DNA from: a virus
Reading direction: 5' to 3' (one strand)
Length of the DNA stretch: 26,703 nucleotides
IMG/VR virus record: IMGVR_UViG_3300028042_000004
Shown here: positions 4,316-25,423 of the stretch, in pieces
How positions within the stretch are numbered: position 1 is the first letter of the stretch
How the letters are laid out: each line of letters opens with the position of its first letter
Notes under the pieces: generated by a model
What the model saw: the letters and a program-made list of their open reading frames with translations, nothing else
Databases searched by the model: none
Told to the model about the DNA's origin: nothing
Position numbers and translations under genes: made by a program

Positions 4316-4329
4316 ATTTTTATCTTTTA

Positions 4330-5223: not shown

Positions 5224-7563
5224 TTAGGTACAAGTATGAACATTATTTATATATCCAGTACTTGATATTTGATGTGATTTAGGGGCCATAGTTTCTTTCC
5301 AGTAATTTCCTCCACCATCAAACGCATTAGCAGATAGCCCACTAATATCATTATATACCACATCATTATATGCTGGTGATGAGCCATTTCCTATAAAATA
5401 TTTATCTACAAAACCACCTAAATTACACGCCGCAGAACCTGTTGTTGCACTAGTAGTTGATATAGAAACATACTGTGATTTCAGATGTACTGTTGTTCCT
5501 GTAGAAGGTATTATAGATTCATTATTCTCTGCATCATACGCTGAAACTTTCCACTCTGATTGACTGTTGGCCACTAGACCAGTAATAGCATAAGAGGTAT
5601 TTGTATCTAAAGTATCATGGAATAGTACATCATCTTTATAGATTCTAAATCCAGTAACAGCTACATTATCCCTTTCATCTGTCCAATGTATTACAAAGCC
5701 TGTATGGTTAGAGCTTATAGAATTACCGTATATACCTGTAGGAGGTATAGGTGCCGTAGTATCGGTACCACAAGAAGCGTATTCTGATAAAACACCAACT
5801 GGGTCTATCTTATATACATTTCTACCTTTATCTGTAAAGTTTCTATTTTGCCCATCAAGTAAATCAGTAGCAAGATTTGTATTATAAACCTTATCTGTAA
5901 GTGTTGGATATAATCCTGTCCCATCATGCCATCTCTCAGTCTCAACTAAAAGTTCACATGAATGCCCCTTACTAGATAATGTTGATAGATATGAAGTAAA
6001 TCCAGCATTATTAGTTTGATGTACAGCTAAGCCATTAGATGCTGCTGAATCCCCATTAACATTAACAGTCTTCATAGTCCAAGTGTTATTGGAATCTATA
6101 GTCTGCCCAGTAACAGTAAATTCAGTAATAAGCCCAACAATAAATTCATGAGTGGCTGCACCATTTTTAAATATCTTATATCCTGTAATAGGATCATCTC
6201 CTGGATCAGTAGGAGGTACCCACTCCAAATCAAATGTTGTATTTGTAATATTATCTGCAAATAGCGCTGTAGGCTTCCCAGGCACCCCTTCAGGTAAATT
6301 AGCCATGGTAACACTTATAGACTCTGATAATATTGATATATTTCCAGATGTATCTATAGCTTTCATTGTTATTGCGTAAGTTGTATTCTTTGTAAGGCCA
6401 GTAATCATAAAGTTAGAATATACACCGTCAACCTCTATATGAAGTGTTCCATCTACAAAAACTTGGTATGTTGCTATTCCTCTATTATCTTCAGCCCTTG
6501 TCCAATAAAGTTTGAACTCAGTATTTTTAACATTTTGCCCAAATAAATCTCTTGGGGCTGTAGGAGGATCAACATCTGCTTGAGCAAGCTTCTGTGATAA
6601 ATAGGCTGATTGTGGGCTATCTGTGCCTGACAAAGTTGCAGCTACTGTCCATTTACTTGTTGAAAATGCTGTCTCCCCAGTTATAATTGCTGTAGTTGTA
6701 GACGCATTAGTAGATGAGTGATAAACACCGTCCCTATATATTTTATACCCATTCACAGTAAAATACCCAGTATGCATAAAAGGTACATTCCAGTTTAATG
6801 TAAACCCAGTTGTACCGATTGCGGTACCTGTTGGTCTATTTGGCGGAAATCTTCCACTACTATCCCCAAAGTATATCCATGCAGAGCAGCCGAAACTACT
6901 GCACGCACGTAATCTCGGACGTAATGGTGGGTAAGTATTAATACCTCCATTCATTACATATTCAGTAGGATTACTTGAATCTTGTATGGTTTCTAAAGTA
7001 AAATTAGTATCACCAGCATATTCATAGTATAATGCACAATCTGAACTATTCCATGATCCTATAGTAGTATAATGATCATCAAAGTCCTCATAAATAATAA
7101 CATCAAAACTTTCTGGTGCATTAGGCACTGTAGTAATAGAATTACTTATATTTACTGTAAGAGGCTGAGATATACTACAACCAGTCTCATTACATGCCAT
7201 AACACCTACTTCAGTACAAGTTGACCCTCTAAAAGGCAGGTCAACAGAAGTTCCACTTACTTGCGTAAAAGATGTGACAACAGAATCTACAGTAGCAGTA
7301 ACTCTATAATAGGTAGCAAGAGCAGTCTCTGTCCAAGAAACTCTTATATAACTTCCACATATGTCTGGAGCAAATTCTATCGCTGTTATCCCTGTAGGAT
7401 GCGCTGGTTTTGCAACAGAAAGTGGGCACATACCAGTATCCTGCACATCAGGTATATGATTTGTACCTGCAGCGTTAGGCTCTTTATGTATAAGAGTATT
7501 TGTGCTTGTTATATAAAGCCCTCTATTTATGTATCGCTTGTATCCTGTATTAAAATTTGCCAT
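5224..7563 (-). CDS. fibronectin type III repeat protein (about 6 FN3 plus 2 Cys-bounded repeats), probable virion adhesin
   Basis: Repeated P..P..L...W....Y.(V/I)...A....G.S patterns, e.g. DPPTAPRDL...W...EDNRGIATYQVF and DTTAPIPPTG...W...DNVAVTGFRIY; no signal peptide. Confidence 0.85.
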   Translation of the reverse strand: MANFNTGYKRYINRGLYITSTNTLIHKEPNAAGTNHIPDVQDTGMCPLSVAKPAHPTGITAIEFAPDICGSYIRVSWTETALATYYRVTATVDSVVTSFTQVSGTSVDLPFRGSTCTEVGVMACNETGCSISQPLTVNISNSITTVPNAPESFDVIIYEDFDDHYTTIGSWNSSDCALYYEYAGDTNFTLETIQDSSNPTEYVMNGGINTYPPLRPRLRACSSFGCSAWIYFGDSSGRFPPNRPTGTAIGTTGFTLNWNVPFMHTGYFTVNGYKIYRDGVYHSSTNASTTTAIITGETAFSTSKWTVAATLSGTDSPQSAYLSQKLAQADVDPPTAPRDLFGQNVKNTEFKLYWTRAEDNRGIATYQVFVDGTLHIEVDGVYSNFMITGLTKNTTYAITMKAIDTSGNISILSESISVTMANLPEGVPGKPTALFADNITNTTFDLEWVPPTDPGDDPITGYKIFKNGAATHEFIVGLITEFTVTGQTIDSNNTWTMKTVNVNGDSAASNGLAVHQTNNAGFTSYLSTLSSKGHSCELLVETERWHDGTGLYPTLTDKVYNTNLATDLLDGQNRNFTDKGRNVYKIDPVGVLSEYASCGTDTTAPIPPTGIYGNSISSNHTGFVIHWTDERDNVAVTGFRIYKDDVLFHDTLDTNTSYAITGLVANSQSEWKVSAYDAENNESIIPSTGTTVHLKSQYVSISTTSATTGSAACNLGGFVDKYFIGNGSSPAYNDVVYNDISGLSANAFDGGGNYWKETMAPKSHQISSTGYINNVHTCT

Positions 7564-9248: not shown

Positions 9249-11192
9249 TTATTGCTTTTTAAATACTATTTCTTCTAGTCTTTTCAGTCTTTCTTCTAGC
9301 TCTCTATTTTTATTCTTAACCTCTACTAACTCTTTAACAAGTAATCCAGTATAATCTACTGCTTTAAATCCATCAGAACCTTCTTTAACAAGCTCTGGAG
9401 AAGATATCTCAACTTCTTGCGCTATTGCACCGTAGTGTTTTATTTTCTTAATGTCTTTCTTAAATGTATATGTTACAAACGTATCATCTAAGTGCACTAT
9501 ATTCTCTTTTAATCTCTCATCAGAGGATTCGAAAAAGCTTGTAGCAGTTACAACATCTTCAAATACTCCAGCCCCATTTACAGCAAGTGTTTCTGCTTTG
9601 GCGTTAGGTACATTTATAGCATATCCTAATTGTAATCTACTATTAATTATTGAGGCTGTAGATTGATCTTTTCCTGCAAGCCAAAAGTGACTTCCAGCAG
9701 AGTCATGTGCCCTTAGTACTGGAAGCTCGTCAGTTGTCCCAAATATACTAGTATTTGACCACACACCTAAATCTATATAAGTATTTTTTGCACCTACATT
9801 AGCTGCCCTAAGCATTCCAATAGCCCCATTAGTTGGAACTACTCCTTCATTGGACGCATATAAAACTGTTCCCCCTGTTATGCTATCTTTAAATTCTCCT
9901 TTTTTAGAATATATCTTAAGGTACTTTTTAGTAGCACTACCTAAATTTACTACTCCATGTGTTGTAGGAATAATATCTCCAGTAAGAGCTGCTGTACCAG
10001 TAAGAGGTATAAAATTACCACTGCTTCCCAAAGATGCTGGATCAATAAGTGCACCGTTTGCCTGTAATAAATACGTTGGATGTGTTTGATCATTTGTTTT
10101 AAAACTTGCTGCATCTACAATACCAGAAAACGCTCCAGAAGAAGCATCTAAAGATGATCCATATATCCATTTAAATCTATACTGATCGCTACCTAGACTT
10201 CTTGAATTATTACTACTAGGAATAATATTTCCAGCTAAAGCAGATGTTCCTGTTAGTGGTATATATGGATGGGTATGCGCAATAGGAGCTGGTTGAGACC
10301 CTGTAAGATTGCCCCAAGACGTGCTATGTGGATTATTTGTATTTATTACGTGAGCATGTCCAACACCTCCATCAAAAGCAGATCCTGTAGTTGTACCTAT
10401 TACAAGGCTCGCACTAATCTCAACATAAGCTGAACCACTCCATCTCCATGTTTTATTGTTATCTGTTGTCACATATATAATACCAGAAGCTCCTGTAGGT
10501 GGTAAAGCTGCAAAATTAGCAAATTCCTGTACCTCGTCTACATAACTAGGTAGCTGACTCTGAGGGACTTTTCCAGACCCATCAAGTGAAGCATATCCAT
10601 TAGTTGCTCCTTTGTTTACTTTATCCTCTTTAGCATTAAGAGCAGTTTGAAGGCTAGTTACATCTCCTATAACATGTGTATGAGATGCCGCTGCTCCTCC
10701 TACATCACTTAAAGTAACAGAGTGAGGGTTGCCAGTAGTAACACCAGAATGTGTAAATGCTGAATCCCAATTATTAATATCAATTGGAGCAATCCCATCA
10801 AGCAATGTTTTATTAGCATGAGAGTGTAAGCTTGTTAAATCAGGTGTCCCTGTAATTTCTGAATAAATAACATTATGTGGATTACCGATAGTAACACCAC
10901 TATGAGTATGTGCTGCATCCCAGTTAGATATATCTACTGCAGCAATACCGTCAAGTAGCACTTTATTAGCGTGTGAATGCAGAGATGTTAAATCAGGCTT
11001 ATCAGTAAGATCAGCATATAATACACCGTGTGGATTACTAGTATTATTTAAATGACTATTCCACGCAGCTATACTTAGTTGTCCTAATGCAACAAGCTCA
11101 TGAGTACCAACAGCATTAGCAGCAGTAACAGTCCCAGTAAATGTACCTAATCCTGTAACATTTATATCGGTTAATATTTTTTTAACAGCCAT
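9249..11192 (-). CDS. tail fibre with His-rich repeats and C-terminal peptidase S74 intramolecular chaperone
   Basis: S-D-E-R-L-K-E-N-I...G.IAQEV...PELV...VDY plus terminal coiled coil (about 9249-9524); KG..NGYASLDGSGKVP.SQLPSYVD fibre module; HxH and NPH repeats. Confidence 0.9.
   Translation of the reverse strand: MAVKKILTDINVTGLGTFTGTVTAANAVGTHELVALGQLSIAAWNSHLNNTSNPHGVLYADLTDKPDLTSLHSHANKVLLDGIAAVDISNWDAAHTHSGVTIGNPHNVIYSEITGTPDLTSLHSHANKTLLDGIAPIDINNWDSAFTHSGVTTGNPHSVTLSDVGGAAASHTHVIGDVTSLQTALNAKEDKVNKGATNGYASLDGSGKVPQSQLPSYVDEVQEFANFAALPPTGASGIIYVTTDNNKTWRWSGSAYVEISASLVIGTTTGSAFDGGVGHAHVINTNNPHSTSWGNLTGSQPAPIAHTHPYIPLTGTSALAGNIIPSSNNSRSLGSDQYRFKWIYGSSLDASSGAFSGIVDAASFKTNDQTHPTYLLQANGALIDPASLGSSGNFIPLTGTAALTGDIIPTTHGVVNLGSATKKYLKIYSKKGEFKDSITGGTVLYASNEGVVPTNGAIGMLRAANVGAKNTYIDLGVWSNTSIFGTTDELPVLRAHDSAGSHFWLAGKDQSTASIINSRLQLGYAINVPNAKAETLAVNGAGVFEDVVTATSFFESSDERLKENIVHLDDTFVTYTFKKDIKKIKHYGAIAQEVEISSPELVKEGSDGFKAVDYTGLLVKELVEVKNKNRELEERLKRLEEIVFKKQ
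10722..11036 (-). repeat. intragenic tandem repeat, 153-nt (51-aa) period, about 2 copies
   Basis: NPH at aa 53, 104 and 155; PDLTSLHSHANK.LLDGIA..DI.NWD.A.THSGVT.GNPH repeated. Confidence 0.9.
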
Positions 11193-11236
11193 ATCTTATT
11201 TTTATTATTATTAATTTGTTATTTGAAATAACTTAG

Positions 11237-11268
11237 ACAAATAGGGCCCGATCAAAGACCCTATTCGT
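11237..11268 (-). promoter_or_regulatory. intergenic RNA hairpin (weak terminator or mRNA stability/processing element)
   Basis: Minus strand ACGAATAGGGTC-TTTGATCG-GGCCCTATTTGT, 12 bp including two G-U pairs; no long U tract after it. Confidence 0.6.
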
Positions 11269-11283
11269 AAATTGAATTTTTTA

Positions 11284-12591
11284 TTATCCAATTACAACAC
11301 AAGTCATAGTACCTGCGGTAGTCTGATTTGTATCAATTTGTACATCTGTACCATTACTTGCTTTTTTAATTCCACAAATAACCTCATCTCCAGTTGAATC
11401 TTCGAAGATTTGAACTTGGTATGCAGTATGGCCTAAACCATGCGCTACTGTCCAAGAATCCCCAATTGCTAGTGGGAAACTAACTCTTCTTGCGTTACCA
11501 ATAGTAGACGCAACTCCACCCATAAATTCAGCTTCTAAAGTAGCTTTTAATCTAGAAGGAATAACAACAGAGTTATTATGTGCATCAACACCATTAATAG
11601 TGTTAGCCTCGTTTGATAAATAAACAACACCACGCTTTGTAATAGTTGCATCATCAGCTACTCTTTGTACGATATCCCAGTCAGCCTCTACATTTGGACC
11701 TGTCCCAGCGTTATCATTACCTACAATAAGAGTATCTCCAATTACTACATCTGTAGTAAAGAATGTACCTGCAACAGTAACTACATAGTAATTACCTTTT
11801 ACAAGACCAGCTACTGGTAAAGTAGTATCTAAATCTGGACTGTTTGCAGCAGCATCATAACTACCTTGATAAGCACTGTTACCTGCAATTGATGCATCAA
11901 CATAAGCTTTTACAGCTTTAGTAGTAGAAACCTCTAAATCAGAGTCTCCAGCTAATTGAGTATCATCTTTAATCCAGTCAATATTAGCAACTAAAGCCCC
12001 ACCATTTAATGCAAGGGTATCATATACTAATGTAAGAGGATCGATATAGTTCGCTCCATCAGCGATACCATTTAATTTAAGTTTCTCTTTACCTGTAAAT
12101 AGACCTGCCATGTTATTAGCAGCAATATCTATAATATGCACCTGGTTAAGAGTACCACCATCAGTAAGTGATACAGTGGTAGGAGTATCTCCATCTCCAC
12201 CTGCACCAGCAGCCTGATTATTAGAGATAAGTAAATCAGTCGTTGCTTGAGCATTCTCATCAAGAGCATTTAATTTAATCTTATCATCTTTAGACATAAC
12301 CCCTGCAGCAAGTATTGTTGCTCCTGCGATTGTAGTGTCAGTACCTGTTGACGATGTTACTAATACATCATCAGCACTAGGTGTGTTGTCTAGATCAGTA
12401 TCAGCTACTGCTGAAGTTACCCAGTTAGTTCCGTCATAAACATAAAGTTTATTCTCATCTGATTTGAAGAACATGTAACCAGTTGCCTGTGCTGGCAATG
12501 GTGTTGGGAAACTTGTCCCATTCATGATTCTTGCATTGTTAAGTAGATTACCTGATAGGTTAAGATCTACTAAAAATTTCTTTTCTGCCAT
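11284..12591 (-). CDS. putative tail fibre segment (435 aa), modules F...E
   Basis: N-term MAEKKFLVDLNLSGN; G.MFF.SDENKLYVYDGTNW, AGVMSKDDKIKLN / AGLFTGKEKLKLNGIADGAN and DATITKRGVV fibre motifs; C-term WTVAHGLG...VQIFE domain. Confidence 0.75.
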   Translation of the reverse strand: MAEKKFLVDLNLSGNLLNNARIMNGTSFPTPLPAQATGYMFFKSDENKLYVYDGTNWVTSAVADTDLDNTPSADDVLVTSSTGTDTTIAGATILAAGVMSKDDKIKLNALDENAQATTDLLISNNQAAGAGGDGDTPTTVSLTDGGTLNQVHIIDIAANNMAGLFTGKEKLKLNGIADGANYIDPLTLVYDTLALNGGALVANIDWIKDDTQLAGDSDLEVSTTKAVKAYVDASIAGNSAYQGSYDAAANSPDLDTTLPVAGLVKGNYYVVTVAGTFFTTDVVIGDTLIVGNDNAGTGPNVEADWDIVQRVADDATITKRGVVYLSNEANTINGVDAHNNSVVIPSRLKATLEAEFMGGVASTIGNARRVSFPLAIGDSWTVAHGLGHTAYQVQIFEDSTGDEVICGIKKASNGTDVQIDTNQTTAGTMTCVVIG

Positions 12592-12621
12592 TTTAAAATG
12601 TTTTAAATGTTATATTATTAA

Positions 12622-13038
12622 TTAATTAATTATTGCAACTCCAGTCATCGATACGTTAAAGTCGACTGTTACCGAGTTGTCATCTATATGAGTTACCTCT
12701 GCCTCAACTAAAGCGCCTGCGCTATTAGCTATTTGGACAGCTGGTCTCTTTCCTAAATTGTGTGTAATACTCCACTGCATTAGCGGAGTCGATTGGGTAT
12801 GAATATAATTAGCGTCACCTCCAGTGCCACTACCTACTTCTTCCCAATCTGCGTTGGTATTTCCTTTTAATATATAAAGAGTCTGATCAGCTTCGACAAA
12901 TACCTGCTGCCCTGCTTTAGCTCTTCCAGAAGTAACTAAAGCATCTCTAACAACTGTTGTAGCAGCAATATATCTGTCCCCATCAATCGGGCTGTCATCC
13001 GCTATTCTTACTCCAAAAGGTAAATTAAAATATGCCAT
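12622..13038 (-). CDS. putative tail fibre adaptor (138 aa), modules C-E
   Basis: N-terminal 71 aa match the 13059-14222 protein (47/71 identical by hand count); C-term YIHTQ....QWSITHNLGKRPAVQI domain. Confidence 0.75.
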   Translation of the reverse strand: MAYFNLPFGVRIADDSPIDGDRYIAATTVVRDALVTSGRAKAGQQVFVEADQTLYILKGNTNADWEEVGSGTGGDANYIHTQSTPLMQWSITHNLGKRPAVQIANSAGALVEAEVTHIDDNSVTVDFNVSMTGVAIIN

Positions 13039-13058
13039 GTTATAGTTCTAGTTTATTA

Positions 13059-14222
13059 TTATGAAATTGTTACTACATAGTGTGCTGCGGTTGGGTAACC
13101 ACCACCACCAATTACTGTATCATACTTATCGTATCCAATAGATCCAGAACCACCGTCACTTACAGGCATTGCTGTAATATTAAATGATCCAGTAACATCT
13201 GCATTAGATGACTCTGTATAAGTTATTACTGGTACCCCTACTCCTGCTGGTATATAAAAAGAAATAACTGGGGTGTTAGCTGGTATCATCATTGTAAATG
13301 TTCCAACTGGATAGAATCCTTTGTCTGTCAATGCTCTAACACCTGAAGATGTAGAAGGAGCAGTTCCAACACTGTACCAATATCTGTACTTACCTGTGAT
13401 AATATTAGAATTATCTGACACTGTTCCAGCAACTCTTGCTGCATCATGAGAATGATCTTCAGTACCATCTGATTTATTATACTGCACTGTACCTTCGCTA
13501 TATGATTCAAGAACTGTCCACACATTCGGTCCAGCTAATACTGGTGTGTTAATCGCTCCAGCTGCTGAAATACCTGTACCACTAAATACTGATCCTGTAG
13601 TAGGCCCTGTTAATGGGACATCTGCTACTGGGTTCAATGATTTAATAATACCTGGGTAATACGCTGCTGAACCAGTTTCAGAAATAGTTGAACCTATCTC
13701 TCTAGTTTCAGTAGATACACCATTAAATACAACAGAGTTCACAGAACTTATAATAGGGCTAAGTACTGGCGCTACAATTTGGTTAATAAAGTCTTCTAGA
13801 TTTGATCCTGCTGCGATAGTCTCGCCTGGATCAATATCTCCAGCCCCTACTGTTGCTATAATATCAGTTGGAATAGTTCCACCACCGCCGATAATCTCAG
13901 CAATTGTTTTCCCACTATCCTTAATGATTTTACCAGTAGTTCCGTTATAAATAGCAATGTGTTCATCACCTGCTGTTGCTGGTCCTGTAACGTCTCCGCC
14001 ACCAGATCCTCCTGAGCCAACCTCTGTCCATCCAGCGTTGGTAGCTCCTTTCAATACATATAAAATCTTTTCAGATTCTACATATACTTGTTGTCCTTCT
14101 TTTGCTCTTCCTATTCCTATCAGAGCGTCTCTTGCTGCAAGGTCTACTGCTAAATATCTGTCCCCATCAATTGGATCTGATCCTGCTACTCTTACACCAA
14201 ATGGTAAATTAAAAAATGCCAT
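13059..14222 (-). CDS. putative tail fibre segment (387 aa), modules C-D-B
   Basis: Shares its N-terminus with 12622-13038, the GDVTGP...GKIIKDSG module with 1613-4315, and its C-terminal ~270 aa with 14237-15283 (ITGKYRYWYSVG...GVRAL...GFYPV). Confidence 0.8.
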   Translation of the reverse strand: MAFFNLPFGVRVAGSDPIDGDRYLAVDLAARDALIGIGRAKEGQQVYVESEKILYVLKGATNAGWTEVGSGGSGGGDVTGPATAGDEHIAIYNGTTGKIIKDSGKTIAEIIGGGGTIPTDIIATVGAGDIDPGETIAAGSNLEDFINQIVAPVLSPIISSVNSVVFNGVSTETREIGSTISETGSAAYYPGIIKSLNPVADVPLTGPTTGSVFSGTGISAAGAINTPVLAGPNVWTVLESYSEGTVQYNKSDGTEDHSHDAARVAGTVSDNSNIITGKYRYWYSVGTAPSTSSGVRALTDKGFYPVGTFTMMIPANTPVISFYIPAGVGVPVITYTESSNADVTGSFNITAMPVSDGGSGSIGYDKYDTVIGGGGYPTAAHYVVTIS

Positions 14223-14236
14223 ATCTTATCGTTTTA

Positions 14237-15283
14237 TTAGTTTATTGTTATTATATATGTTGCCTGTGAAGGATATCCCCCACCAGGTATTGTTGTTTCA
14301 AATCTTGAATACGATTTAGGTATTCCTGCCGCATCATCCACATTCATTACTGTTTCAGTAAATGTAGAAGTAACATCAGCATATGAGCTCTCCTTATATT
14401 GAACTGTAATAGATTCTCCAACTGGTAGATAAAAGGCTACCTCAGGAGTACTTATTGGTATTGTGATACTAAACGTTGTGACTGGGTAAAATCCTCTAGT
14501 CACTAAAGCTCTCACGCCCGCAGAGTTTACAGGAATACTTCCAACGCTATACCAGTATCTATATTTACCTGTAATGGTCTCAGACACGTCTGTAACGGCT
14601 CCAGGACCCCTAAGGCCATTTAAATTAGTAGCCACATTTCCCTGACTATCATAATAAGGTGTATTAGTACCAGTAAAGTTCTCTGAAAGGTGCCAATAGT
14701 TTGCCCCTAATATTATATGAGTACTTACAAGACCTAATGATGTGATACCTGTTCCAGTATATGTCTGTCCAGTGCTCGCACCAGTCAACGGCACCACTGG
14801 GTGGCCATCTTTAGATTCAATAAGACCTTTATTATACGTCGCAAACAACTGCTGTGTATACTGTGCCCCAACTTCCATCGTAGCAGCTACAACACCACCA
14901 AGGATAGTATAGTTAGGAAGACTAACAGTAGGCATAATTAATGGGGCGATAAGCTGCTCCACAAGCTCTGTAATATCTGTCCCCATCGGCACTGTCTCTC
15001 CAATCGCAATACCACCAGCATCTACTGAAGCAGTAATAGCTTTAGTAGTCTCACTTGTAGCATCGACAGTCATCTCTGTCCATATAGTCAAGTCAAACGC
15101 ATCCTCTAATCTCCATTTTATACCATTCTCGTCAGTAACCTCCATGTATAGATGTCTCATATACATAGGAAGTGCTTCCTTAGTAGGGTATCCACTCACA
15201 GGTAGGCCAAGACCTACAATATCTGTATCTCTAAGCGGTTTCGGTGCGGGTAGCGTTAAATAATCACTAATCGTAATTGCCAT
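14237..15283 (-). CDS. putative tail fibre segment (348 aa), modules A-B
   Basis: N-term LPAPKPLR module shared with 15300-17846 (36/69 identical by hand count); remainder paralogous to 13059-14222. Confidence 0.8.
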   Translation of the reverse strand: MAITISDYLTLPAPKPLRDTDIVGLGLPVSGYPTKEALPMYMRHLYMEVTDENGIKWRLEDAFDLTIWTEMTVDATSETTKAITASVDAGGIAIGETVPMGTDITELVEQLIAPLIMPTVSLPNYTILGGVVAATMEVGAQYTQQLFATYNKGLIESKDGHPVVPLTGASTGQTYTGTGITSLGLVSTHIILGANYWHLSENFTGTNTPYYDSQGNVATNLNGLRGPGAVTDVSETITGKYRYWYSVGSIPVNSAGVRALVTRGFYPVTTFSITIPISTPEVAFYLPVGESITVQYKESSYADVTSTFTETVMNVDDAAGIPKSYSRFETTIPGGGYPSQATYIITIN

Positions 15284-15299
15284 GTTCTTTTATTTTATA

Positions 15300-17846
15300 T
15301 TATGTTATTTCAATATCTGTCACTGCTCCAGTAGCGTCTGGTTTACTGTACCATAACTTCTCTAGCGTTGGTACAGCTGGGTCATCAATATATTTCTTAC
15401 TTATAACCACTCCTTTTACTGCAAGAGGAGTACCACTCCAAACATTCTTACCATACCATCTAGGTATTGCAAATAAAGTATCAGTAAATGATACATTTGC
15501 TGGTATTGTTACTCCATGCCAGTTATGCCCAGTAACATCATGTAAATTACCGTCAATAGTAACATCTTGTAGGTCATCTAAAACAGTTCTCCTAATAATA
15601 CTATTAAGTACCACATTTTCATTATAACCATGGGTATTTCTAGACATTATACTAGAGTATTGAATATTTGCTCCTGGCTTCACCAAAGAGTCTTTTAACC
15701 AAATTCCTCTATTATATGACATAGCCCCAGCCAATACTGTACTATTAACTATATGTATTTCACCATTAGCATGTATCCAGTTAGACATATAAAATATCGT
15801 ATTAGAACATGTGAATGTTGTGCCATTAATACTTCTTCCTGTATGAGCATCTCTAGAGGCTCCTTTTCTTATTGATATATTATGAGACATTTCTGCAGAT
15901 ATAGAAGATACTGATATACCTTCAATAAATGAAAAGCCTTCAAAATAGTTATCTTGAAACCATGCAGAACTACTTGAGATATTTATATCCCAACTTGATC
16001 CAAATACATAGTTTTTCATAGTGCCCCCGTACATAGATTTCATTGTGATCTGATATAGGAATTGTCCTATAAAAGTTGTACCATATACAGTACCATCAAG
16101 ATTTATAAAGTAATTTTCATAGTAAGCAGTATTACCTGTACCCATTAAAAGGTTACCTTGATTCTCTACTTTACTCCATAGAAATCTTTCCTGAGGGTCT
16201 GGCCCTTTACCATCCACAATTGTAAGGTCATGACTAAAAGCAAATGTTGGAAAGTTTTGAAATCTATTCTTAACTACTTGAAAACCAAATGTTCTTGTCA
16301 ATGACATATCTACTTGAGGATAACCATCTCTATCTGTCCAGTCACTGGCAACGTAATCTCTATACATTCCAGTTGTGTCTTCACCAGCTGGTCTAAATAA
16401 AGCCCACCATTCACCGTCTGTAGCGACAGGATCGTTTCCTGTATTACCAGCTTGTAGACTTATAAATAAAGCATCTTTTGATCTATCTGCAGGAAATGCA
16501 GGATCAGGCATACTACAAGTTTCTTGTTTACCATAGGGTGTAGCTGCAACATATTCAGGAGCAGTTACTGCCCATCTAGTTACTCTATACCCCACATAAT
16601 CAAACCCAGCCTCTAAAGATATCTCTAAATCTTTTCTAAAATATATCGCACCCTTAGGTTGTTCTGGTGCATCTCTTTTAACTGTTTTAGTAAAGAAAGC
16701 TCCTTGCCCAGTTACTTCCCAGTAATCGTCAATAGCGGCTGTAATAGGTACTACATCTATAGCTGCATCAAAATCTCCTTTATAATTCCATCCAGCCTCA
16801 AGGTCTTCTTTTTTTACAATCTCCCACCCTGACTCATCAACTGGATCAACTACTATAGCTCTAATTAAATCACCATACTCATTCCAATCCCACTTTGCAT
16901 CATAGTATATAACATGATCTGGATATGTGTCAGATTTTACTACGTGATTTATTTGGTTCTTAGTTAATGCATGAACGTATAAAGGCTCAACCGCAGTATC
17001 AAAGTTATATGCCAACCCATCATCTGATCCTGAATATGTTCCATCATTAAATTGACCATCGTCCATATGCCAATGTGTCTTAAAGTCTGTTATCATATAA
17101 TGTTGGCCAGGTATTAGTGATAGAGTATCTTTCAATCCTCTAAGTTCTTCATACGTAACATCTATAACAGTAAGCTCTGTACTGAATATAGGTGCCATTG
17201 GGTCTGTCTTATCAATAACAATACCGTGGCCTTCTTGTGGATCAATCTGTGTATTATCAAACACGGCTCCTGCTGGAACATCTGTCTGTACTTTAGCATC
17301 TAATTGCTGTAAACTAACAGCATCATTATTTCCAACCCCATCAGCTACTTCAAATCTAGCCATAGGATTACCATCTGTATTGGCTTTATTATCAAGCGCT
17401 AGCTGTAAATCAGTCTGATCACTAAGAGTCCCTGTTATAGATCCCCAAGTGCCTCCGCCGCCTCCGCCGCTGTTAAGTGCCCAAACACCTATACCTCCAG
17501 TAACTCTTCTTACCCAATCTCCATCTGCTGTAGGCTCTGGTATAATCGCTGGTAAAGGTGCCCAATCCTCATAATTCTGTAATTTTGTTCTAACAAATGA
17601 CCCATCAGATGTTGGTCCAGGAATTATAGGTGGGACAGGTGTCCATTCCATTATATCAAGAGGATTTTTTAATATCCATTTTTGACCAGAAGGCTCAATA
17701 GTCTCCATAAATAAATGTCTGTGCCACTCTGGAATTGCTTCCTTATTAGAGTATTCACTAGCAGGTGCTCCAAACCCAACAAGCTCTGTTGTTCTTAGTG
17801 GTTTTGGTGCTGGTAAGTTTATATTGTCGCTTAATGTTATTGACAT
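15300..17846 (-). CDS. putative tail spike / receptor-binding protein (848 aa)
   Basis: A module, two P..DG..VR....W repeats, GGGGTWGSITGTLSDQTDLQ.AL motif, VTYEEL..L.....LIPGQHY.ITDF motif, then Asn/Ser/Ile-rich beta-helix-like C-terminal third. Confidence 0.75.
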   Translation of the reverse strand: MSITLSDNINLPAPKPLRTTELVGFGAPASEYSNKEAIPEWHRHLFMETIEPSGQKWILKNPLDIMEWTPVPPIIPGPTSDGSFVRTKLQNYEDWAPLPAIIPEPTADGDWVRRVTGGIGVWALNSGGGGGGTWGSITGTLSDQTDLQLALDNKANTDGNPMARFEVADGVGNNDAVSLQQLDAKVQTDVPAGAVFDNTQIDPQEGHGIVIDKTDPMAPIFSTELTVIDVTYEELRGLKDTLSLIPGQHYMITDFKTHWHMDDGQFNDGTYSGSDDGLAYNFDTAVEPLYVHALTKNQINHVVKSDTYPDHVIYYDAKWDWNEYGDLIRAIVVDPVDESGWEIVKKEDLEAGWNYKGDFDAAIDVVPITAAIDDYWEVTGQGAFFTKTVKRDAPEQPKGAIYFRKDLEISLEAGFDYVGYRVTRWAVTAPEYVAATPYGKQETCSMPDPAFPADRSKDALFISLQAGNTGNDPVATDGEWWALFRPAGEDTTGMYRDYVASDWTDRDGYPQVDMSLTRTFGFQVVKNRFQNFPTFAFSHDLTIVDGKGPDPQERFLWSKVENQGNLLMGTGNTAYYENYFINLDGTVYGTTFIGQFLYQITMKSMYGGTMKNYVFGSSWDINISSSSAWFQDNYFEGFSFIEGISVSSISAEMSHNISIRKGASRDAHTGRSINGTTFTCSNTIFYMSNWIHANGEIHIVNSTVLAGAMSYNRGIWLKDSLVKPGANIQYSSIMSRNTHGYNENVVLNSIIRRTVLDDLQDVTIDGNLHDVTGHNWHGVTIPANVSFTDTLFAIPRWYGKNVWSGTPLAVKGVVISKKYIDDPAVPTLEKLWYSKPDATGAVTDIEIT

Positions 17847-17856
17847 ATTGTTATAT

Positions 17857-18861
17857 TTAATTTGTTAATTCTACTCCAAATGCTGCGTCTGGTCCAGTAC
17901 TAGTTGCATAAGCCGTAGCATATACATGATAGTCTGCGCCATTAACCTGCACTGTTCCTTTATCCTCAAGAGTAGTAAACGACCCATCAGCTCCAATTGA
18001 AGCGTAAGGGGCAGTAGCATCCACTCTAAATTTAGTAAAGGCATGTGTCTGTGACATTGGTACCGCAATGAAGAAGTTTTCTCCAACCACATCTACTCCT
18101 TCAAATACATTGAATGAAGGATTAGTACTAATCTCTACAAAATCGCCTGCTAATATAGTAGCCTCATCTGGCGTACCAGTAGTTGCTCCAGTAGATCCAA
18201 AATATGTCTTACCATAAACTGGTATAGCTACCCATGTAATTGTTGTTGTAATAGGAGTTGTCTCACTAGAAGTCAACGTCCATGTAACAGATGATCCACC
18301 AGGATAATTATATGTAACTCCTGCAGGTGTATACGATGTCATACCTGTAACATCTACATTAGTAATAAATCCTTTATCATCTGATAATCTCATATTAGTA
18401 GGTGCCCCATCCATATGCCACTCTATAGTAGGATTAGATATTGGAACATTCTCTGTTATAGTGCTTCCATAACCAGCTACATCTAAGTTACTTAAATTAT
18501 CTGGGAAGTGTAATTCTAATATGATTCTTTCTAACGGTGTTCCTGGAGGGTAAGGCCCTATCTGTATTGTAGAAATACAATCACAGTTACCACCGCTCCC
18601 AAACTCTTGCCAGCTAGTCATATTTAATGGAAGAGATCCATTAGCATTAGGTATAATTGAAATATATGCTACTCCATTATCTATTACTAAACTTCCTTCT
18701 TCTTTATATATTTTATCTTCTACGACGTTTATAACTATATCACCAAAGTAGAATAACCCATCTGCCTCTGAGCGTACATATCCACCTTGAAAAGGGAATG
18801 TACCAGCAGTGTTCTCTACCTTTAGATTCTTTGTTATATTTAATGATCCTCTTACTTTCAT
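17857..18861 (-). CDS. putative tail-associated structural protein (334 aa)
   Basis: Thr/Gly/Pro-rich beta protein within the fibre array; short CBM-like segment (GVAYISIIPN...SWQEFG); C-term YFGS...FFIAVP...YHVY pattern. Confidence 0.65.
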   Translation of the reverse strand: MKVRGSLNITKNLKVENTAGTFPFQGGYVRSEADGLFYFGDIVINVVEDKIYKEEGSLVIDNGVAYISIIPNANGSLPLNMTSWQEFGSGGNCDCISTIQIGPYPPGTPLERIILELHFPDNLSNLDVAGYGSTITENVPISNPTIEWHMDGAPTNMRLSDDKGFITNVDVTGMTSYTPAGVTYNYPGGSSVTWTLTSSETTPITTTITWVAIPVYGKTYFGSTGATTGTPDEATILAGDFVEISTNPSFNVFEGVDVVGENFFIAVPMSQTHAFTKFRVDATAPYASIGADGSFTTLEDKGTVQVNGADYHVYATAYATSTGPDAAFGVELTN

Positions 18862-18863
18862 AA

Positions 18864-19424
18864 TTACAGAATTGTTATATTAAATTGCTCTGATACAGTT
18901 GGAGCAGGATCCAGTACTATTAATATACCATCATTATTGATCTCTATCTTATCTGGAAACTCCATTTCTGTATATGTACTCGCACTAGACTTTAGAAATG
19001 CTTGAGCGCTGCTCTTATCAAATAAAACGCTATATGGTAGTAAACTATTATCTATCTGAAAACCAGACACTCCAGTATTACTGTATATAACATCAATTTT
19101 CACAACCTTATCATATATCACAAAGTTATATGACTTACCACTATAGTCTGGGTCATACACAGGATATGTATAGGGAGTGCTAAGCAGCCCAAAATCTGAC
19201 TCAGTCCATATATATGACATACTAGATGCTTTTGATTTAATTACTAAATTATCATAAAGCACTGCTCTAAAATCATTCTCCTTCTCTGTGAACGGTGCAC
19301 TAAATGCCTCCACTACCACAGTCTCACTCAGAACGTCAAGTCTATCGTCAACAGGCCTTGCTTCAGTAATCTGAAGACCAGCCGTTCTTATAATATTCTC
19401 GTATTGTTTTACTTTCTCTGCCAT
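18864..19424 (-). CDS. putative tail fibre adaptor (186 aa)
   Basis: N-term GLQITEARPVDDRL resembles the C module (GVRIADDSPIDGDRY); C-term DKIEINNDGILIVLDPAPTVSEQFNITIL resembles the E module. Confidence 0.65.
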   Translation of the reverse strand: MAEKVKQYENIIRTAGLQITEARPVDDRLDVLSETVVVEAFSAPFTEKENDFRAVLYDNLVIKSKASSMSYIWTESDFGLLSTPYTYPVYDPDYSGKSYNFVIYDKVVKIDVIYSNTGVSGFQIDNSLLPYSVLFDKSSAQAFLKSSASTYTEMEFPDKIEINNDGILIVLDPAPTVSEQFNITIL

Positions 19425-19427
19425 GTC

Positions 19428-20855
19428 TTAATGTCTTTTTAAGGTATAGTCTGATGCATTTGTAGATGAAGAAGAAGCTTCCGCATATAAGTAAGCATCG
19501 AAACCATTTCCAAGGTCGATTATATTAAATGCTGATAATGGTACCTCACCTGTTGGTTGGTAAAACTTAACAACACCCCACTCTTGTGGTATTTCTATTA
19601 CAAAGTGTACCTTCGCTATAGATCCTGATGGATTATAAACTGGTGCACTAATATACACTCCACTATCTATCATTGTGATAGGCACATCTTGTGTAAATAT
19701 GTCTCTAGGTATTCTATTGTTATATTCAATAAGATCCTGTGCGGTACCTAAACCACCTATCTTAACCCAAGCTCCAAGACCTGTGTCGTAGTAGTTCATG
19801 ATAGCCTCATCAAGGTATCCTGCAATAGCATCAATAGTTTGAGCTGGAATATTAACAGTAGTTCTATCTGTAGCAAGTTGTACAAAGTTTGAATCAACCT
19901 GGCTCTCAACTTTCAGATAATATCTTGTATGGAAGAAGTTTCCTTCTGCTCCAGATATCACATCAGCAACATGTCCAGAGATATCAAGCGTTGTTGTACC
20001 AGAATCAAGAATAACCTCAGGGCTACTTCCAGATACCATAGTAACTTGCCATCTATAAGAATCTCCACCTGGATTTAATACAGAATAGTTTATATCTATA
20101 TCATATGTTCCTGGTGTACCTATAAATTCAGGTAATGAAATAATAGATCCAGATATTGGCTGGAATTCTAATAATTCATATTTAACATTAGCAAGAAGCT
20201 TCTCATCTAACACAGTACCATCACTTGTAAGGTCATAAACAACTACAAGAGTAAATGGAATAGTTTCACCTATTCTATCTAAGTACTCCTCATTGGATAC
20301 AAAATATGAAAGCTCTACTAAATTACCAGAACTATCAATTATAAGTCCATTGTTCGTAGCAAGGCCAGATCCAGAGTATATAGGAACTTCCCCACCGTCT
20401 TTCAGTATAGACCAGTAGATATTCTTACCATCTCTTGGCTCTATAGCAAAGTTAAATATAATCTTATCATTTCTACCTGTATATCTGTTTAGATAGAAAG
20501 TAGTTATAACAGGCGCTAAGTTGCTTGTCATAAAGCCGAACTGGTTGTTGTTTCTCATATAAACTACAAGAACATCTACTCTCTGCCCACTAAAGGCATT
20601 AAGAGGGTCCCCTGAATTACTTATATGAATCTCAAATTCGCTATCAACAAAGAAATGCATTCCCTCAATCAAGTTAATACCATTGACTGTAAGAGATACT
20701 ATCTTATCTATCCCAAACTCTGTTGTGAAGATAGTTGTATTTCCTTCATTCCTTAAATTTGAGCTAACCCCAAGCTCTCCAAATTCTTGTCTAAACTTGA
20801 CGTTGTTAGTTCTTACTACTAGCTCGCTCTGAATTATGTTATGTATCTTTTTCAT
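19428..20855 (-). CDS. putative tail-associated structural protein (475 aa)
   Basis: Translationally coupled to the stabilization gene. N-term G.TT.FT...V.L.VNG..L.EG..F...V.V.Y resembles fibre-attachment domains, followed by Ig-like beta segments. Confidence 0.65.
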   Translation of the reverse strand: MKKIHNIIQSELVVRTNNVKFRQEFGELGVSSNLRNEGNTTIFTTEFGIDKIVSLTVNGINLIEGMHFFVDSEFEIHISNSGDPLNAFSGQRVDVLVVYMRNNNQFGFMTSNLAPVITTFYLNRYTGRNDKIIFNFAIEPRDGKNIYWSILKDGGEVPIYSGSGLATNNGLIIDSSGNLVELSYFVSNEEYLDRIGETIPFTLVVVYDLTSDGTVLDEKLLANVKYELLEFQPISGSIISLPEFIGTPGTYDIDINYSVLNPGGDSYRWQVTMVSGSSPEVILDSGTTTLDISGHVADVISGAEGNFFHTRYYLKVESQVDSNFVQLATDRTTVNIPAQTIDAIAGYLDEAIMNYYDTGLGAWVKIGGLGTAQDLIEYNNRIPRDIFTQDVPITMIDSGVYISAPVYNPSGSIAKVHFVIEIPQEWGVVKFYQPTGEVPLSAFNIIDLGNGFDAYLYAEASSSSTNASDYTLKRH

Positions 20856-23800
20856 TAATTTTGACTTATACTTAATATCGATATTACTGCTTGTACGAAT
20901 AGTTCATCATTACCTTCATAAACAAATCTTACCTTTATATGCTTATCTCTTATTCTTTTATTATTAGCTTTTGTTATTGAATTACCTACCTTACCAGCTT
21001 CAATATATAATTTACTGTCTCTATAGTATGCATTCTGATCAAGTATTCCAATACCAAGGTTTCTTCGTGCTACTGAACTATCTCCCCTAACTTTTATAGG
21101 TTGAACAGTTACTCTGCTCTTAGCCTCTTCTCCCCAAATATCTATAGCTGGGTCGTTTACGTCTCCTGAGGTAGTATAAATAACCTCTGTTGGAATTCTC
21201 TTATTACATAATACTAAAATATTTTCTAAAATCTTCTCGTACGTCGGTTTATCATTCAAAATTATTTCGAACTCCACAGTATAGTCGATTCCTCTAATCC
21301 TATTTCTAATATATTTACCAGTAGCAGGGTCTATAAGAGCGTCTTCTTTCCATATATTATGTGTCTCACTAAAACCAAATGAAAATTCATCTGAAGTAAT
21401 CTTAAGTAAAAACTTATTTCCTTCAGAAAGTCTAGCCATCCATTTTTGTATAACTGTATTATAGCTTAGGGCCCCAACATGATATTGATCACCAGTCTCT
21501 ATATTTTCAGCAACGTATGTAATGTATAGGGTATGCTTTATATGATTAAAAGTACTATATACCCTTGCCCTATAAATAGCGTTTTCATCACCCTCAACAA
21601 TACCTCCCTGAACTATTTTCTTTTTAAATTTCTGTAAAAGTGTCTTAATAGCAAACTCACTAATTACCTTAATCTTTCCACCCACATACATCCAAACAGC
21701 ATCAGAGTTATAATCTACTCCAAGTACAGTCGAATCACTTTTAACAATAGATTCTGGATGATCTGTCCCATACAGGTCAGATATGATTGCTGGCTTAGGA
21801 CTAAGTGCTTTGGCCGTGTCAACATAAATGTCAGATCCTTCTGCAAGAAGAGTTCTATCATCTACTGCAATAGCAAGTATACCTTTTCTATGTATAGACA
21901 GTAAAAGACTATTTACAGTGATTATCTTTACAATAGGACCATAATCAAGACCATAGTCTCTATAATTGAATCCTCTAAGATCTCTAAATGAGTTATAAAA
22001 CTCCTGCGCCTGATTCTTCTCAGACAACATAATTCTATTAGGAAACTCTGTGCTAAAAATAGCAGCATTCTCTTCTATTCTAAAATACTCTATCACGTTA
22101 TTATCTGGTGAGTATCCTTGATTATACACAACAGAGTCTGGCCTAGGATCCCCTAGAATCATTTCTCCACGATTAGGATAGAAATCTCTATCATACCCTA
22201 CACCCTTAAGTTCCTCAGGAGAAGAGGGCTCTATACTTCTTATGTCTGCATTTATATTAGAGTATGTTACTATCTCTATAATTTGCCCAACATCATATAG
22301 GTTACGACCTTTGTCTTTTTTCCATGTCTCTAAAATATTTTCATCCTTATAATCATCCTTCACAGGCTTATTTATACCGATACCAAAGGTACCAGCATCC
22401 CCTGCAGAAGCAGACAATACGCCAACACCATTTTTATATGTTACTCTTTTATAAAACTTTGATATAAAGCCATCACCTTGAAATAAGTCCATCTTATCAG
22501 TGGTCATAGGCACTCTATCTGTTATACTAGCATATGGTTTATTATTATCATATTTATAGATATCTATTATATCATTTCTTTGCCATCTTCCAAAAGGAGA
22601 TCTAAATAAGTTTGCTAAATGCCCAACATTAAGGAATACGCCGTCAGATACTCCTGGCTTCTCGCTGTCCGCCCATTCTATACATTTTGGTGGGTGGTAT
22701 ATATAATTTACATCAGTATACCCCCAAGACCATTTTGTACATTCTAAGGATCCCCCATATTCTAGGCACTGTATCACATTAGACTTATTAGGAAGGTCTA
22801 GTATATCATTAGTAACTTCTCCTCTATATACGAATTCTGGTATCTTCTGTAATTCTGCTGTTTCTATTTTCACACCAAGATATACTGAGTATGATTGTGA
22901 TATCATTGAATATGGCTTAAAATATCCACCATTCCATTTCTCATCAATGGCCCCATAGTTTCCATATCTAGATGTAGGAGTTATAAAGTTCCATTCTGGC
23001 CCATAAGCACCATTCCTTTCTGTAAAAGGAGCATATGGAAGGACTATACTGTTAGTAGCCTGATCGTCGTCAGACATAAGTCCTAATGCCCTATCTGTCT
23101 TACCAGTAAATGACCCTTCTGCTGTAATTTGACTACCAGAAGAGATAAGTGTTGTTTTTACCTTATTAGAAGATATTGTAATAAAAGGTGCTCTAGAAAA
23201 TGCCACTGGCTCTGAATTAAATGCAATAACATTCTGTTCTTTATCCTTATATCTTTCACTTGTAGAGGTAATCATAGGATATATATCTGCCTCAGCAACT
23301 GGTGACGCCCCATTAAGAGTCTCCTGTATCTCAAACGAAGGTGTAGATCCTGTAAGTAAATTATTAATTGTAGGTAGATTAAGATCTATCTCTGCAGAGA
23401 AGAATGCTAAATGCTGCTCACCAGTAGGTTCCCCATGCCTATCAACAGTCTCTGAATACACATCACTACCAGCATGTTGCCCTATAGAACCAATAGCAGC
23501 ATATACATCCGCACTATTCGTAATATTGATTACCTGAGTAGGTAATGGAGCGTATACTACATTAAAGTCTGGTGTAAATATAGGGTCACCACCTTTTTCA
23601 AGCGCCATATACTTAGTGTTAAGACCAATTCTAAAATCCTCTCTAGTATAAGGCGTTAAGTATCTCTTATTAGCAATAAAGTCAGCATGTTTATCTTTTT
23701 CAGAAGTATCTGTAAGTCTTGGAGATATTCCAGGTTTACTAGCTGGAAGCTTTATTGTTGGGTTCATCATACCCTGCATAAGGACATTCTTAACCCTTTT

Positions 23801-25423
23801 TCTACGTACTATAAAGAATCCTGATGCTATCTCTTTAAGCCCTGGAAAATTTGCTAATTTACTAGTATCTGCTTCAGCATATGTAATATATCTAAGCCCT
23901 TCTCCACCACATTCTGGATCATAAATCCTACTTCCTTTACTGAATCTAAATATTCCTTTATGATTTATAAGTCCTTGTTGTGAAAAGCCATCTGGTTCTA
24001 TTACTACATCTGGATAACCATTTAAAAAGAATGGAGAGTTTTCTAACATACTATCTATGTTATCACATCCAGTAATAGGAAATGCTGGGGAAAGCCCTTT
24101 ATTTCTTAACATAAATACTACAGCAAACTCATAAACTTCTCCAGGCCAGTAACCTAGGTATTTTGCGGCGGTGTTAGGGTCGCTATATGATGTCTCAATT
24201 ACCTTAGAACGCTCCCATAAAAAAACATCTTTGGCTGCATTCTCTAGTAATAGGATATGTTCCTCAAGAAGTGTAGACTTTATACCAGCTAGTGCTATTC
24301 TATCATTTACAATATCGATAGATTTAACAGAATCTATTGGTGAAAATGGTGTATTAATTTCCTCTACTTTAATCGATTTAACAGACTCAAGGCCACTATG
24401 CTTTATAGTAACTTTTCCGTCAGTAATAACATATACATAGTTTATTTTAAAATATGCCCCAACAGCAGATGGGTATCCATCAAAATGTGCAAAATAAACT
24501 TGAATTCCTATATAAGAACTATCAAGGTCCTCTAATCTGAATATTGTTGTTTTATCTGATATCTGGTTTTTATTAAGCCCTAGGCCCTCACTGGATATTG
24601 GTATAAGAGGTGACTCATACAGCACATCAGTTGTGTTTCCTTCTTGTGTAACATATTTAAAAAAGTATTTATATCCACCACCACGTAGGGATCCTCCTTC
24701 TTCTACTTTAAATTCTGCTATAGTAATAGGTACATCACTAAGTTGTAATAAAGCTATTCTATCCCAGTCATTATCAGAATATATATTTCCATCATTATCC
24801 CCACGACGTTCAGCAAGCTCAACTATGCCGTAGACATCTGTGCTCTTAAATCTAGACCCTATTATCTTTGGTGGTGTATTACCATCAGTAAATATGATAT
24901 TAGCAGATCTATCAAAATCTCCTTGTACTTTTACATCAATAAATCTATTCTTTATAAATTCAAAATTAGCAGATATAAAAGGATCGGTGTAGTCTCCAGG
25001 TAAACTAGGGTTAGTTTTAAAGTTATGTAGAGGTGAAAATTTTTGTTCTAACTTAGATATACCAACAGTATTAAGTGCATTCCAATCTGGGCTAGGAAAT
25101 GTTCCTATTGTACCCGCTAAGAATGTTCCTGCGCCATCAAACGCTCCAGCTAGTATGTAAGCGATATCATTATAAACTCTTAACCCTAAAGGTATAAATC
25201 TATAAGACACATTACCCACAACATGTTCACCTAAATCAACAACCTTATCATCAAATGACATTGTTGTATTTCCTTTAGTGTTCTGATATAAATACTGATT
25301 CTCACCAATAGTTATTAGCTCCATATTAAGAGAATCAGATACACTATCCATAGGTTGATTAAAAACACTAAGGTCTGTAATCAATCCACCGTTAAACGAG
25401 TTATTTATTGATACTTTTGTCAT
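20855..25423 (-). CDS. tail stabilization (muzzle) protein, crAss-like
   Basis: Recognised motifs NSFNGGLITDL...LN..LIT..ENQY..QN..GN, GG.L..G.Y..FFKY....GN.TD...ES, GYWPGEVYEFAVVF....LSPAF.I.G and C-terminal RIRDKHIKVRF.Y.G; 1522 aa. Confidence 0.85.
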   Translation of the reverse strand: MTKVSINNSFNGGLITDLSVFNQPMDSVSDSLNMELITIGENQYLYQNTKGNTTMSFDDKVVDLGEHVVGNVSYRFIPLGLRVYNDIAYILAGAFDGAGTFLAGTIGTFPSPDWNALNTVGISKLEQKFSPLHNFKTNPSLPGDYTDPFISANFEFIKNRFIDVKVQGDFDRSANIIFTDGNTPPKIIGSRFKSTDVYGIVELAERRGDNDGNIYSDNDWDRIALLQLSDVPITIAEFKVEEGGSLRGGGYKYFFKYVTQEGNTTDVLYESPLIPISSEGLGLNKNQISDKTTIFRLEDLDSSYIGIQVYFAHFDGYPSAVGAYFKINYVYVITDGKVTIKHSGLESVKSIKVEEINTPFSPIDSVKSIDIVNDRIALAGIKSTLLEEHILLLENAAKDVFLWERSKVIETSYSDPNTAAKYLGYWPGEVYEFAVVFMLRNKGLSPAFPITGCDNIDSMLENSPFFLNGYPDVVIEPDGFSQQGLINHKGIFRFSKGSRIYDPECGGEGLRYITYAEADTSKLANFPGLKEIASGFFIVRRKRVKNVLMQGMMNPTIKLPASKPGISPRLTDTSEKDKHADFIANKRYLTPYTREDFRIGLNTKYMALEKGGDPIFTPDFNVVYAPLPTQVINITNSADVYAAIGSIGQHAGSDVYSETVDRHGEPTGEQHLAFFSAEIDLNLPTINNLLTGSTPSFEIQETLNGASPVAEADIYPMITSTSERYKDKEQNVIAFNSEPVAFSRAPFITISSNKVKTTLISSGSQITAEGSFTGKTDRALGLMSDDDQATNSIVLPYAPFTERNGAYGPEWNFITPTSRYGNYGAIDEKWNGGYFKPYSMISQSYSVYLGVKIETAELQKIPEFVYRGEVTNDILDLPNKSNVIQCLEYGGSLECTKWSWGYTDVNYIYHPPKCIEWADSEKPGVSDGVFLNVGHLANLFRSPFGRWQRNDIIDIYKYDNNKPYASITDRVPMTTDKMDLFQGDGFISKFYKRVTYKNGVGVLSASAGDAGTFGIGINKPVKDDYKDENILETWKKDKGRNLYDVGQIIEIVTYSNINADIRSIEPSSPEELKGVGYDRDFYPNRGEMILGDPRPDSVVYNQGYSPDNNVIEYFRIEENAAIFSTEFPNRIMLSEKNQAQEFYNSFRDLRGFNYRDYGLDYGPIVKIITVNSLLLSIHRKGILAIAVDDRTLLAEGSDIYVDTAKALSPKPAIISDLYGTDHPESIVKSDSTVLGVDYNSDAVWMYVGGKIKVISEFAIKTLLQKFKKKIVQGGIVEGDENAIYRARVYSTFNHIKHTLYITYVAENIETGDQYHVGALSYNTVIQKWMARLSEGNKFLLKITSDEFSFGFSETHNIWKEDALIDPATGKYIRNRIRGIDYTVEFEIILNDKPTYEKILENILVLCNKRIPTEVIYTTSGDVNDPAIDIWGEEAKSRVTVQPIKVRGDSSVARRNLGIGILDQNAYYRDSKLYIEAGKVGNSITKANNKRIRDKHIKVRFVYEGNDELFVQAVISILSISQN

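Follow-up and report, generated by a model that had tools for sequence, protein, structure and literature searches.

Nine fibre genes behind a muzzle gene

The DNA analysed here is a stretch of 26 703 nucleotides from the IMG/VR virus record IMGVR_UViG_3300028042_000004 (hereafter the window). The subject is a run of nine fibre genes (9249 to 20855) whose ends carry recurring modules, called A, B, C, D, E and F, which are candidates for docking one fibre subunit onto another. All long genes of the window are on the minus strand. The gene at 20855..25423 encodes 1522 amino acids (aa) and matched PF25731, the muzzle family of Crassvirus (E 3e-29); the window was therefore assigned to a crAss-like phage. 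No portal, terminase, major capsid or ring protein was found within the 26.7-kb window. The nine fibre open reading frames directly follow the Crassvirales muzzle gene in the same direction, with intergenic gaps of 2-91 bases. Their sizes, order and strand were as given in the original prediction, which had been made from the letters alone and had claimed that every B-type C-terminus is followed by an A- or C-type start and every E-type C-terminus by an F-type start.

The first gene of the run (19428..20855, minus strand like the eight that follow) encodes a 475-aa protein that is conserved over its full length. It has 31 homologues, adjoins the muzzle gene in 5/5 loci of relatives and is likely the virion-proximal anchor; a scan using it as single query gave no match. 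The 186-aa protein (18864..19424) has a divergent, weakly C-like start and an end that is E-like by eye only. The 334-aa protein (17857..18861) carries a C-terminal domain of the B superfamily, B'' (about 17860-18243), and the 848-aa protein (15300..17846) an A start (17637-17846) and an end with neither B nor E. In the 348-aa putative extender (14237..15283), an A start (15074-15283) precedes a B region (residues 83-348, core B at 14240-14647). A second one, of 387 aa (13059..14222), has a C start (14013-14222), the D repeat (residues 57-110) and a B region (residues 121-387). The 138-aa candidate converter (12622..13038) combines a C start (12829-13038) with an E domain, E1 (12625-12813). 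The 435-aa putative extender (11284..12591) has the plug strand F1 (residues 5-12), a cap domain reaching to about residue 60 and a second E domain, E2 (11287-11484). The 647-aa putative terminal fibre (9249..11192) has the plug strand F2 (residues 5-12) and a C-terminal S74 chaperone (residues 557-603). The latter was identified, as predicted, by Peptidase_S74 (PF13884, E 4e-7, 30.6 bits against a cut-off of 22) and is the only curated domain among the nine proteins; no curated Pfam family was found for any of the four modules E, F, B and A/C. The 91-base gap between the last two genes (11193-11283), the longest of the run, contains an inverted repeat with 7-base arms, possibly a terminator or processing hairpin that could reduce the level of the terminal fibre.

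Pairwise BLAST bore out the claimed matches between the copies of A (52% over 69 aa, E 1e-19), C (65% over 68 aa, E 2e-25) and B (42% over 267 aa, E 7e-62). The copies of E and of F gave no significant pairwise match, and their likeness was established through family profiles: E1 and E2 are homologous by HHalign (98.6%, E 6e-16), and both F starts of the window scored 16-24 bits on a plug profile from other phages, the best of 1000 shuffles reaching 9.6. A and C are joined by a bridging family, A3 (97% with A, 92.6% with C), the direct A-C profile comparison giving no significant link. In the same way B'' is joined to B through a family B3 (B'' family against B3: 99.3%, E 1e-20, 111 columns; B3 against B: 92%, E 6e-7), the direct B''-B comparison being not significant. 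The B'' family profile comprised 66 sequences, 13 partial or off-domain matches having been excluded. Among the weaker copies claimed for the first three proteins and marked by primes, B'' was thus upheld. C' in the 186-aa protein is weak: one relative scored 13.3 bits against 5.7 for the best of 600 shuffles, and the window copy 1.7. No backing was found for the others: B' (C-terminus of the 475-aa protein) never exceeded shuffles against B, B3 or the 66-sequence B'' family, and E' (186-aa protein) and F' (334-aa protein) were not above shuffled controls, F' scoring 6.0 on an in-sample plug matrix on which 9/226 controls reach 6. Neither the 138-aa protein nor B or A/C had a significant sequence match in the PDB. 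Mtd_N (PF18454) matched 1/37 F1 members (E 0.0085); no Pfam match for it was found in the window proteins.

Junctions in other phages

The junction rule is real, extends well beyond the window and holds in many unrelated phages. Of 40 GenBank records matched by the 138-aa protein, those of six annotated phages were examined (Javan141, R5C, RcZahn, YS40_Isch, Mvi-JY20 and RcCWillis). In 6/6 of these, an E-ending gene is followed by a gene with an F-like start that again ends in E; in YS40_Isch, a further F start on a long fibre gene completes a layout resembling the last three genes of the run. The 387-aa and 435-aa proteins had no match in GenBank phages, nor the 138-aa family in a scan of genome contigs. 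A DNA pattern for E1 was then used to retrieve 120 IMG/VR loci out of about 1400 estimated stretches with a strict E pattern; the loci were counted without reduction to independent lineages. Individual loci from this and the other scans are cited by L numbers; L012 was dropped as a chance match. The 120 loci contained 185 E hits, of which 179 lie at most 10 residues from the stop codon, three are internal and three are cut off. An F profile whose training set was just the six GenBank phages plus the window scored at least 5 bits on 134/176 genes after E, against 5/226 control starts (other gene starts, called in the same way), and the top-scoring control start follows an E overlooked by the profile. 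The predicted succession of E and F was therefore recovered across phage genomes.

The common part of F is an eight-residue strand with the consensus K-F-L-T-D-L/I-D-L after E1 and a looser one after E2, and plugs were assigned to E1 or E2 correctly in 133/156 cases by leave-one-out. The bodies between the modules are diverse (66 E1 carriers in 47 clusters; 53 E2 followers in 44), those of the middle F...E2 proteins being more uniform (36/74 follower bodies in one cluster). Among 71 E1 followers, 56 end in E2, one in E1 and 14 in neither; E2 followers end in E in 2/50 cases. With the two E types in alternation and a different plug for each, the order at these joints is probably fixed by specificity.

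Some loci depart from this pattern in their own way. In L110 and L112, E occurs as tandem E-E repeats and the following genes start with E, not F, a different use of the domain. In mycobacteriophage I3 (L167, 4761-6513), both genes after E share a lineage-specific start unlike the standard F, which suggests that these plugs diverged together. A further small module, G, was seen by eye at C-termini in L163 (17177-19672), L016 (5060-5542) and PBS1 gp88 (L169, 5812-6291), and also in the N-terminus of the 475-aa protein (residues 40-100, about 20550-20740). The profile link for G is weak (E 0.02). As G precedes an F start in PBS1, it may be another socket.

Scans of viral and metagenome sequences gave 29 loci, or 25 after removal of four duplicates, some of the remainder being related. 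An A/C start comes after a B-ending gene at 29/31 junctions, against 4/74 non-B junctions, and at both exceptions a short B-only gene intervenes. The A/C profile contained sequences from four of the tested loci; a profile made from the window only matched 29/33 starts. In the reverse direction, 41 loci selected by an A-type DNA pattern gave 31 distinct A starts, and the B profile built earlier matched the upstream C-terminus in 24/31, so the rule held from both sides. With a profile built from these same loci, which is circular, A followed B at 28/28 junctions, and 34 A starts stood after B (28), after a socket-less A gene (5) or after a contig-edge fragment (1). Two plug genes after one B gene are thus found at 5/34 A-start junctions, and also in L155 and L137. 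The junction between the 848-aa and 348-aa proteins, which the original prediction had set apart as its sole exception, does fall outside the simple rule, and it recurs as a layout in other phages. Such recurrence speaks less for strict gene order than for branching or a choice of partners.

Stand-alone B-only proteins of 132-133 aa were found between a full B gene and C genes (L152, 1504-1905; L155, 5323-5721), and L155 has two B genes followed by two C genes. Another gene with a B-like end followed by a C-like start (L170, 5119-7501) was not called by the profiles; the families are therefore probably wider.

Muzzle and 475-like genes occur together in five relatives. In L163 and L164 they are accompanied by a 186-like gene, a 334-like N-terminus fused to E, an F...E gene and a gene with an F-like start, which in L164 has S74-like similarity. 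The window counterpart of this fusion is the 334-aa protein ending in B'', followed by A. In the window, the B and A/C genes thus come between the two parts of this fusion protein, with a return of the series to the E code at the 138-aa gene. This swap, together with a separate A-E protein in L170, supports the converter role that had been proposed for the 138-aa protein. In L140-L142 the protein encoded immediately behind B has a C start on an 848-like body (31-35% identical), and the 848-aa protein is likely a terminal subunit; with the S74 domain of the 647-aa protein, this supports the earlier view of both as chain terminators.

Predicted folds and known docking systems

The 138-aa protein was modelled from six sequences (predicted local distance difference test, pLDDT, 78), and its E domain is predicted to be all-beta. 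The predicted fold resembles two known fibre-docking adaptors, CBA120 TSP4 XD2 (TSP4 residues 187-249: Z 5.9, root-mean-square deviation 1.8, 54 aligned residues; tied with unrelated beta-sandwiches) and the C-terminal domains of TP901-1 BppU (Z 5.2, deviation 1.7, 52 aligned; and Z 4.7). Phage matches of E also include several tail parts, and none is above Z 7. The C model matches the trimerisation domains of collagen XV/XVIII (Z 5.3 and 4.8). The B core model, from the 348-aa protein, is beta-rich (predicted template modelling, TM, score 0.70). Its Atlas matches are unnamed viral clusters only (TM 0.75-0.83); in one of these, 85% of the members have Mtd_N.

The analogy with polyketide synthase docking domains that accompanied the original prediction was set aside because closer precedents exist in phages, where docking pairs of fibres and spikes have already been described. 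Both TSP4 (PMC8825819) and BppU (PMC3893620) have been characterised as platforms onto which other trimers dock, the XD domains of TSP4 binding other tailspikes (PMC8825819). The T4 gp10-like XD2/XD3 domains of CBA120 TSP4, G7C gp66 and phiKp24, a phage with hyperbranched fibres, are small beta-jellyrolls that bind the N-terminal parts of other trimers (PMC8825819; 10.1101/2022.03.15.484430), and the one at TSP4 residues 187-249 is the best phage match for E. They lie inside the N-terminal part of the tailspike, with partners branching from the base, whereas the putative sockets described here are extreme C-terminal and serial; the internal position typical of XD2/XD3 is not that of E (179/185 hits C-terminal). 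In BppU-BppL of TP901-1 and Tuc2009 (PDB 3U6X, 5E7T), as would be the case here, a C-terminal beta-sandwich of one trimer holds the top of the protein encoded by the next downstream gene (PMC3893620). E has in common with BppU its C-terminal position, a candidate partner encoded downstream and the fold at Z 5.2. It is shorter (63 residues against about 100, of which 52 were aligned, for a BppU domain with a long anchoring loop, 217-234), and no sequence similarity between the two was found. BppU-BppL also differs in being one joint of a siphophage baseplate, with a 1:1 ratio of monomer to trimer and, as described, neither serial reuse nor a second code.

The C-terminal domain of BppU anchors the receptor-binding protein (RBP) in TP901-1, one trimer per monomer (PMC3893620). 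If each socket monomer here likewise held one plug trimer, every joint would branch up to threefold and the fibre would become a tree, as in the BppU-RBP tripod, a geometric variant of end-to-end docking and not exclusive of it. E matches that very domain, the recurrent pairs of plug genes after one B gene would fit such an arrangement, and a region of about 120 residues that could serve as an arm precedes B. We nevertheless consider a tree rather unlikely: XD2 and XD3 of both T4 gp10 and TSP4 are described to bind trimer to trimer on the threefold axis (PMC8825819), and threefold growth over six joints would probably be very crowded.

For F, a comparable description is that of Klebsiella phages KP32, K11 and KP34, which use a short N-terminal docking peptide whose partner is encoded separately; F is likewise a short strand of about eight residues, and in KP32 the branching domain and that conserved peptide are tested partners (PMC13352976). 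That system differs in having two proteins and an internal socket (PMC13352976). In crAss001, gp22 is a trimeric proximal fibre protein that contacts additional, poorly resolved fibre proteins (PMC10172136); in PDB sequence searches, neither the 138-aa protein nor the profiles of B and A/C matched a crAss001 chain. Comparison of E, F, B and A/C with the joints of the T4 long tail fibre gave no match, only body repeats. That fibre (gp34-gp35-gp36-gp37) is made of separately encoded segments, head to tail in gene order, in which no two joints are the same and none is reused. The E carrier of Javan141 we take to have a BppU-like layout. No description of these junctions or of the two connector families was found in a literature search that covered mostly papers outside subscription and main texts; a preprint on Klebsiella RBPs (10.64898/2026.05.12.724579) and the NF5 paper (PMC12917162) contributed nothing specific. 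The docking principle is already known; in the window, two connector families are joined in one operon by a candidate converter.

Candidate assembly of the fibre

C-terminal sockets and N-terminal plugs best explain the terminal position of the modules, their pairing across unrelated bodies, the alternation of E1 and E2, the minimal converters and the concerted swaps. It is fairly likely that E (about 63 residues) with F, and B (about 130 residues) with A/C, are two separate socket-plug pairs that join presumably trimeric fibre subunits end to end; the docking itself, the trimeric state and the geometry we infer. The 475-aa protein would anchor the fibre to the virion and be followed by the 186-aa and 334-aa proteins. 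The B'' socket of the latter would accept an A plug, either of the terminal 848-aa protein or of the 348-aa extender, which would accept the 387-aa protein, and this in turn the 138-aa protein. At that point the assembly would switch to the E code: E1 would accept F1 of the 435-aa protein, and its E2 would accept F2 of the terminal 647-aa fibre. The order is probably looser in the B code, where both A plugs probably share one socket type; each fibre would then fork or exist as a short and a long version. The fibre is likely jointed end to end, and possibly branched.

A wider reading is offered tentatively. E1:F1, E2:F2 and B:A/C might form an interchangeable set of connectors, used with converters and alternative end caps across hosts and tail types, so that a forked or tree-like fibre layout could be read from gene ends. 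The window would combine the two codes within a single assembly, and the construction of unresolved crassvirus fibres may become apparent from it.

Several observations weigh against docking as set out above. After E, 42/176 followers scored below 5 bits, many still F-like and some not; non-F starts follow E in L166 and L170; and in PBS1 an F start stands behind a domain other than E, and E2 is followed by a tailspike that does not start with F. The count of E1-to-E2 successions leans on one or two related extender families (the single cluster with 36/74 bodies). Fold matches of E are middling, the best being a neuraminidase domain (Z 7.0), and Foldseek gave no hit at E 0.001. As B', E' and F' found no support, the argument for the first two junctions is gene order.

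In the B code, copies may be alike within a genome (B 82% and C 76% in L001, 71% and 71% in L145, 52% and 64% in the window), which is hard to reconcile with a strict order. On these grounds, and with two plugs often present per socket, the strictly linear assembly in gene order that had been proposed is doubtful for B:A/C. Near-identical plugs and sockets, and runs of two A...B extenders (L178), would also fit a joint that is not position-specific, at which C...B proteins self-polymerise until a terminal subunit happens to cap them, so that fibre length would vary. This seems unlikely to us, given that the B copies of the window (52%) and of L016 (39%) are no more alike than copies between genomes (median 48.5%), which leaves room for specificity.

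The location on the virion is also in question. PDB 9NX3, a homologue of the F...E2 body with six chains, carries the deposited label of capsid decoration protein; it has E2 at its end and most of its length can be matched to the YS40 extender, and related mycobacteriophage genes are annotated as head decoration; a location on the tail is therefore uncertain. A preprint on Pa223 was rejected as the origin of 9NX3, other codes being given there. An E2-ending protein on a capsid would suit an explanation without docking, in which E and B are ordinary C-terminal knobs for trimerisation or adhesion, F and A/C serve as separate domains for virion attachment, and their adjacency is inherited synteny maintained by recombination over the conserved boundary between the genes. 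The weak matches of E to a galactose-binding domain of Pfam (8/37 members, best E 6e-4, below curated cut-offs) fit such knobs, and a socket-stop-start-plug block moving as one recombination unit would give the same statistics. It would not account for the retention of the block with unrelated bodies in phages whose hosts are Thermus, Streptococcus, Rhodobacter, Microcystis and Rhodococcus, for the alternation of E1 with E2 or for the existence of minimal proteins of two modules (C-E, A-E), and we regard it as quite improbable.

If the E:F and B:A/C modules do dock, many unannotated genes could be given a structural role and placed in an assembly order open to testing with domains of 60-130 residues, flexible fibres unresolved by cryo-electron microscopy, as in crAss001, would become predictable, and orthogonal trimer connectors would be of use as building parts in protein assembly. 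In cultured phages, the cassette is found in genes annotated as hypothetical, tail fibre or head decoration. Streptococcus phage Javan141 (L003, 5719-7974) has its E/F cassette behind the lysis genes and not within the tail module, and several Streptococcus phages have this cassette in common. Elsewhere in the window, the D repeat, a short repeat of the 387-aa protein, is also carried by a 912-aa fibre-repeat protein (1613-4351), and a 779-aa protein of fibronectin type III kind, whose linkers are rich in cysteine (5224-7563), has a homologue after the S74 fibre in L164.

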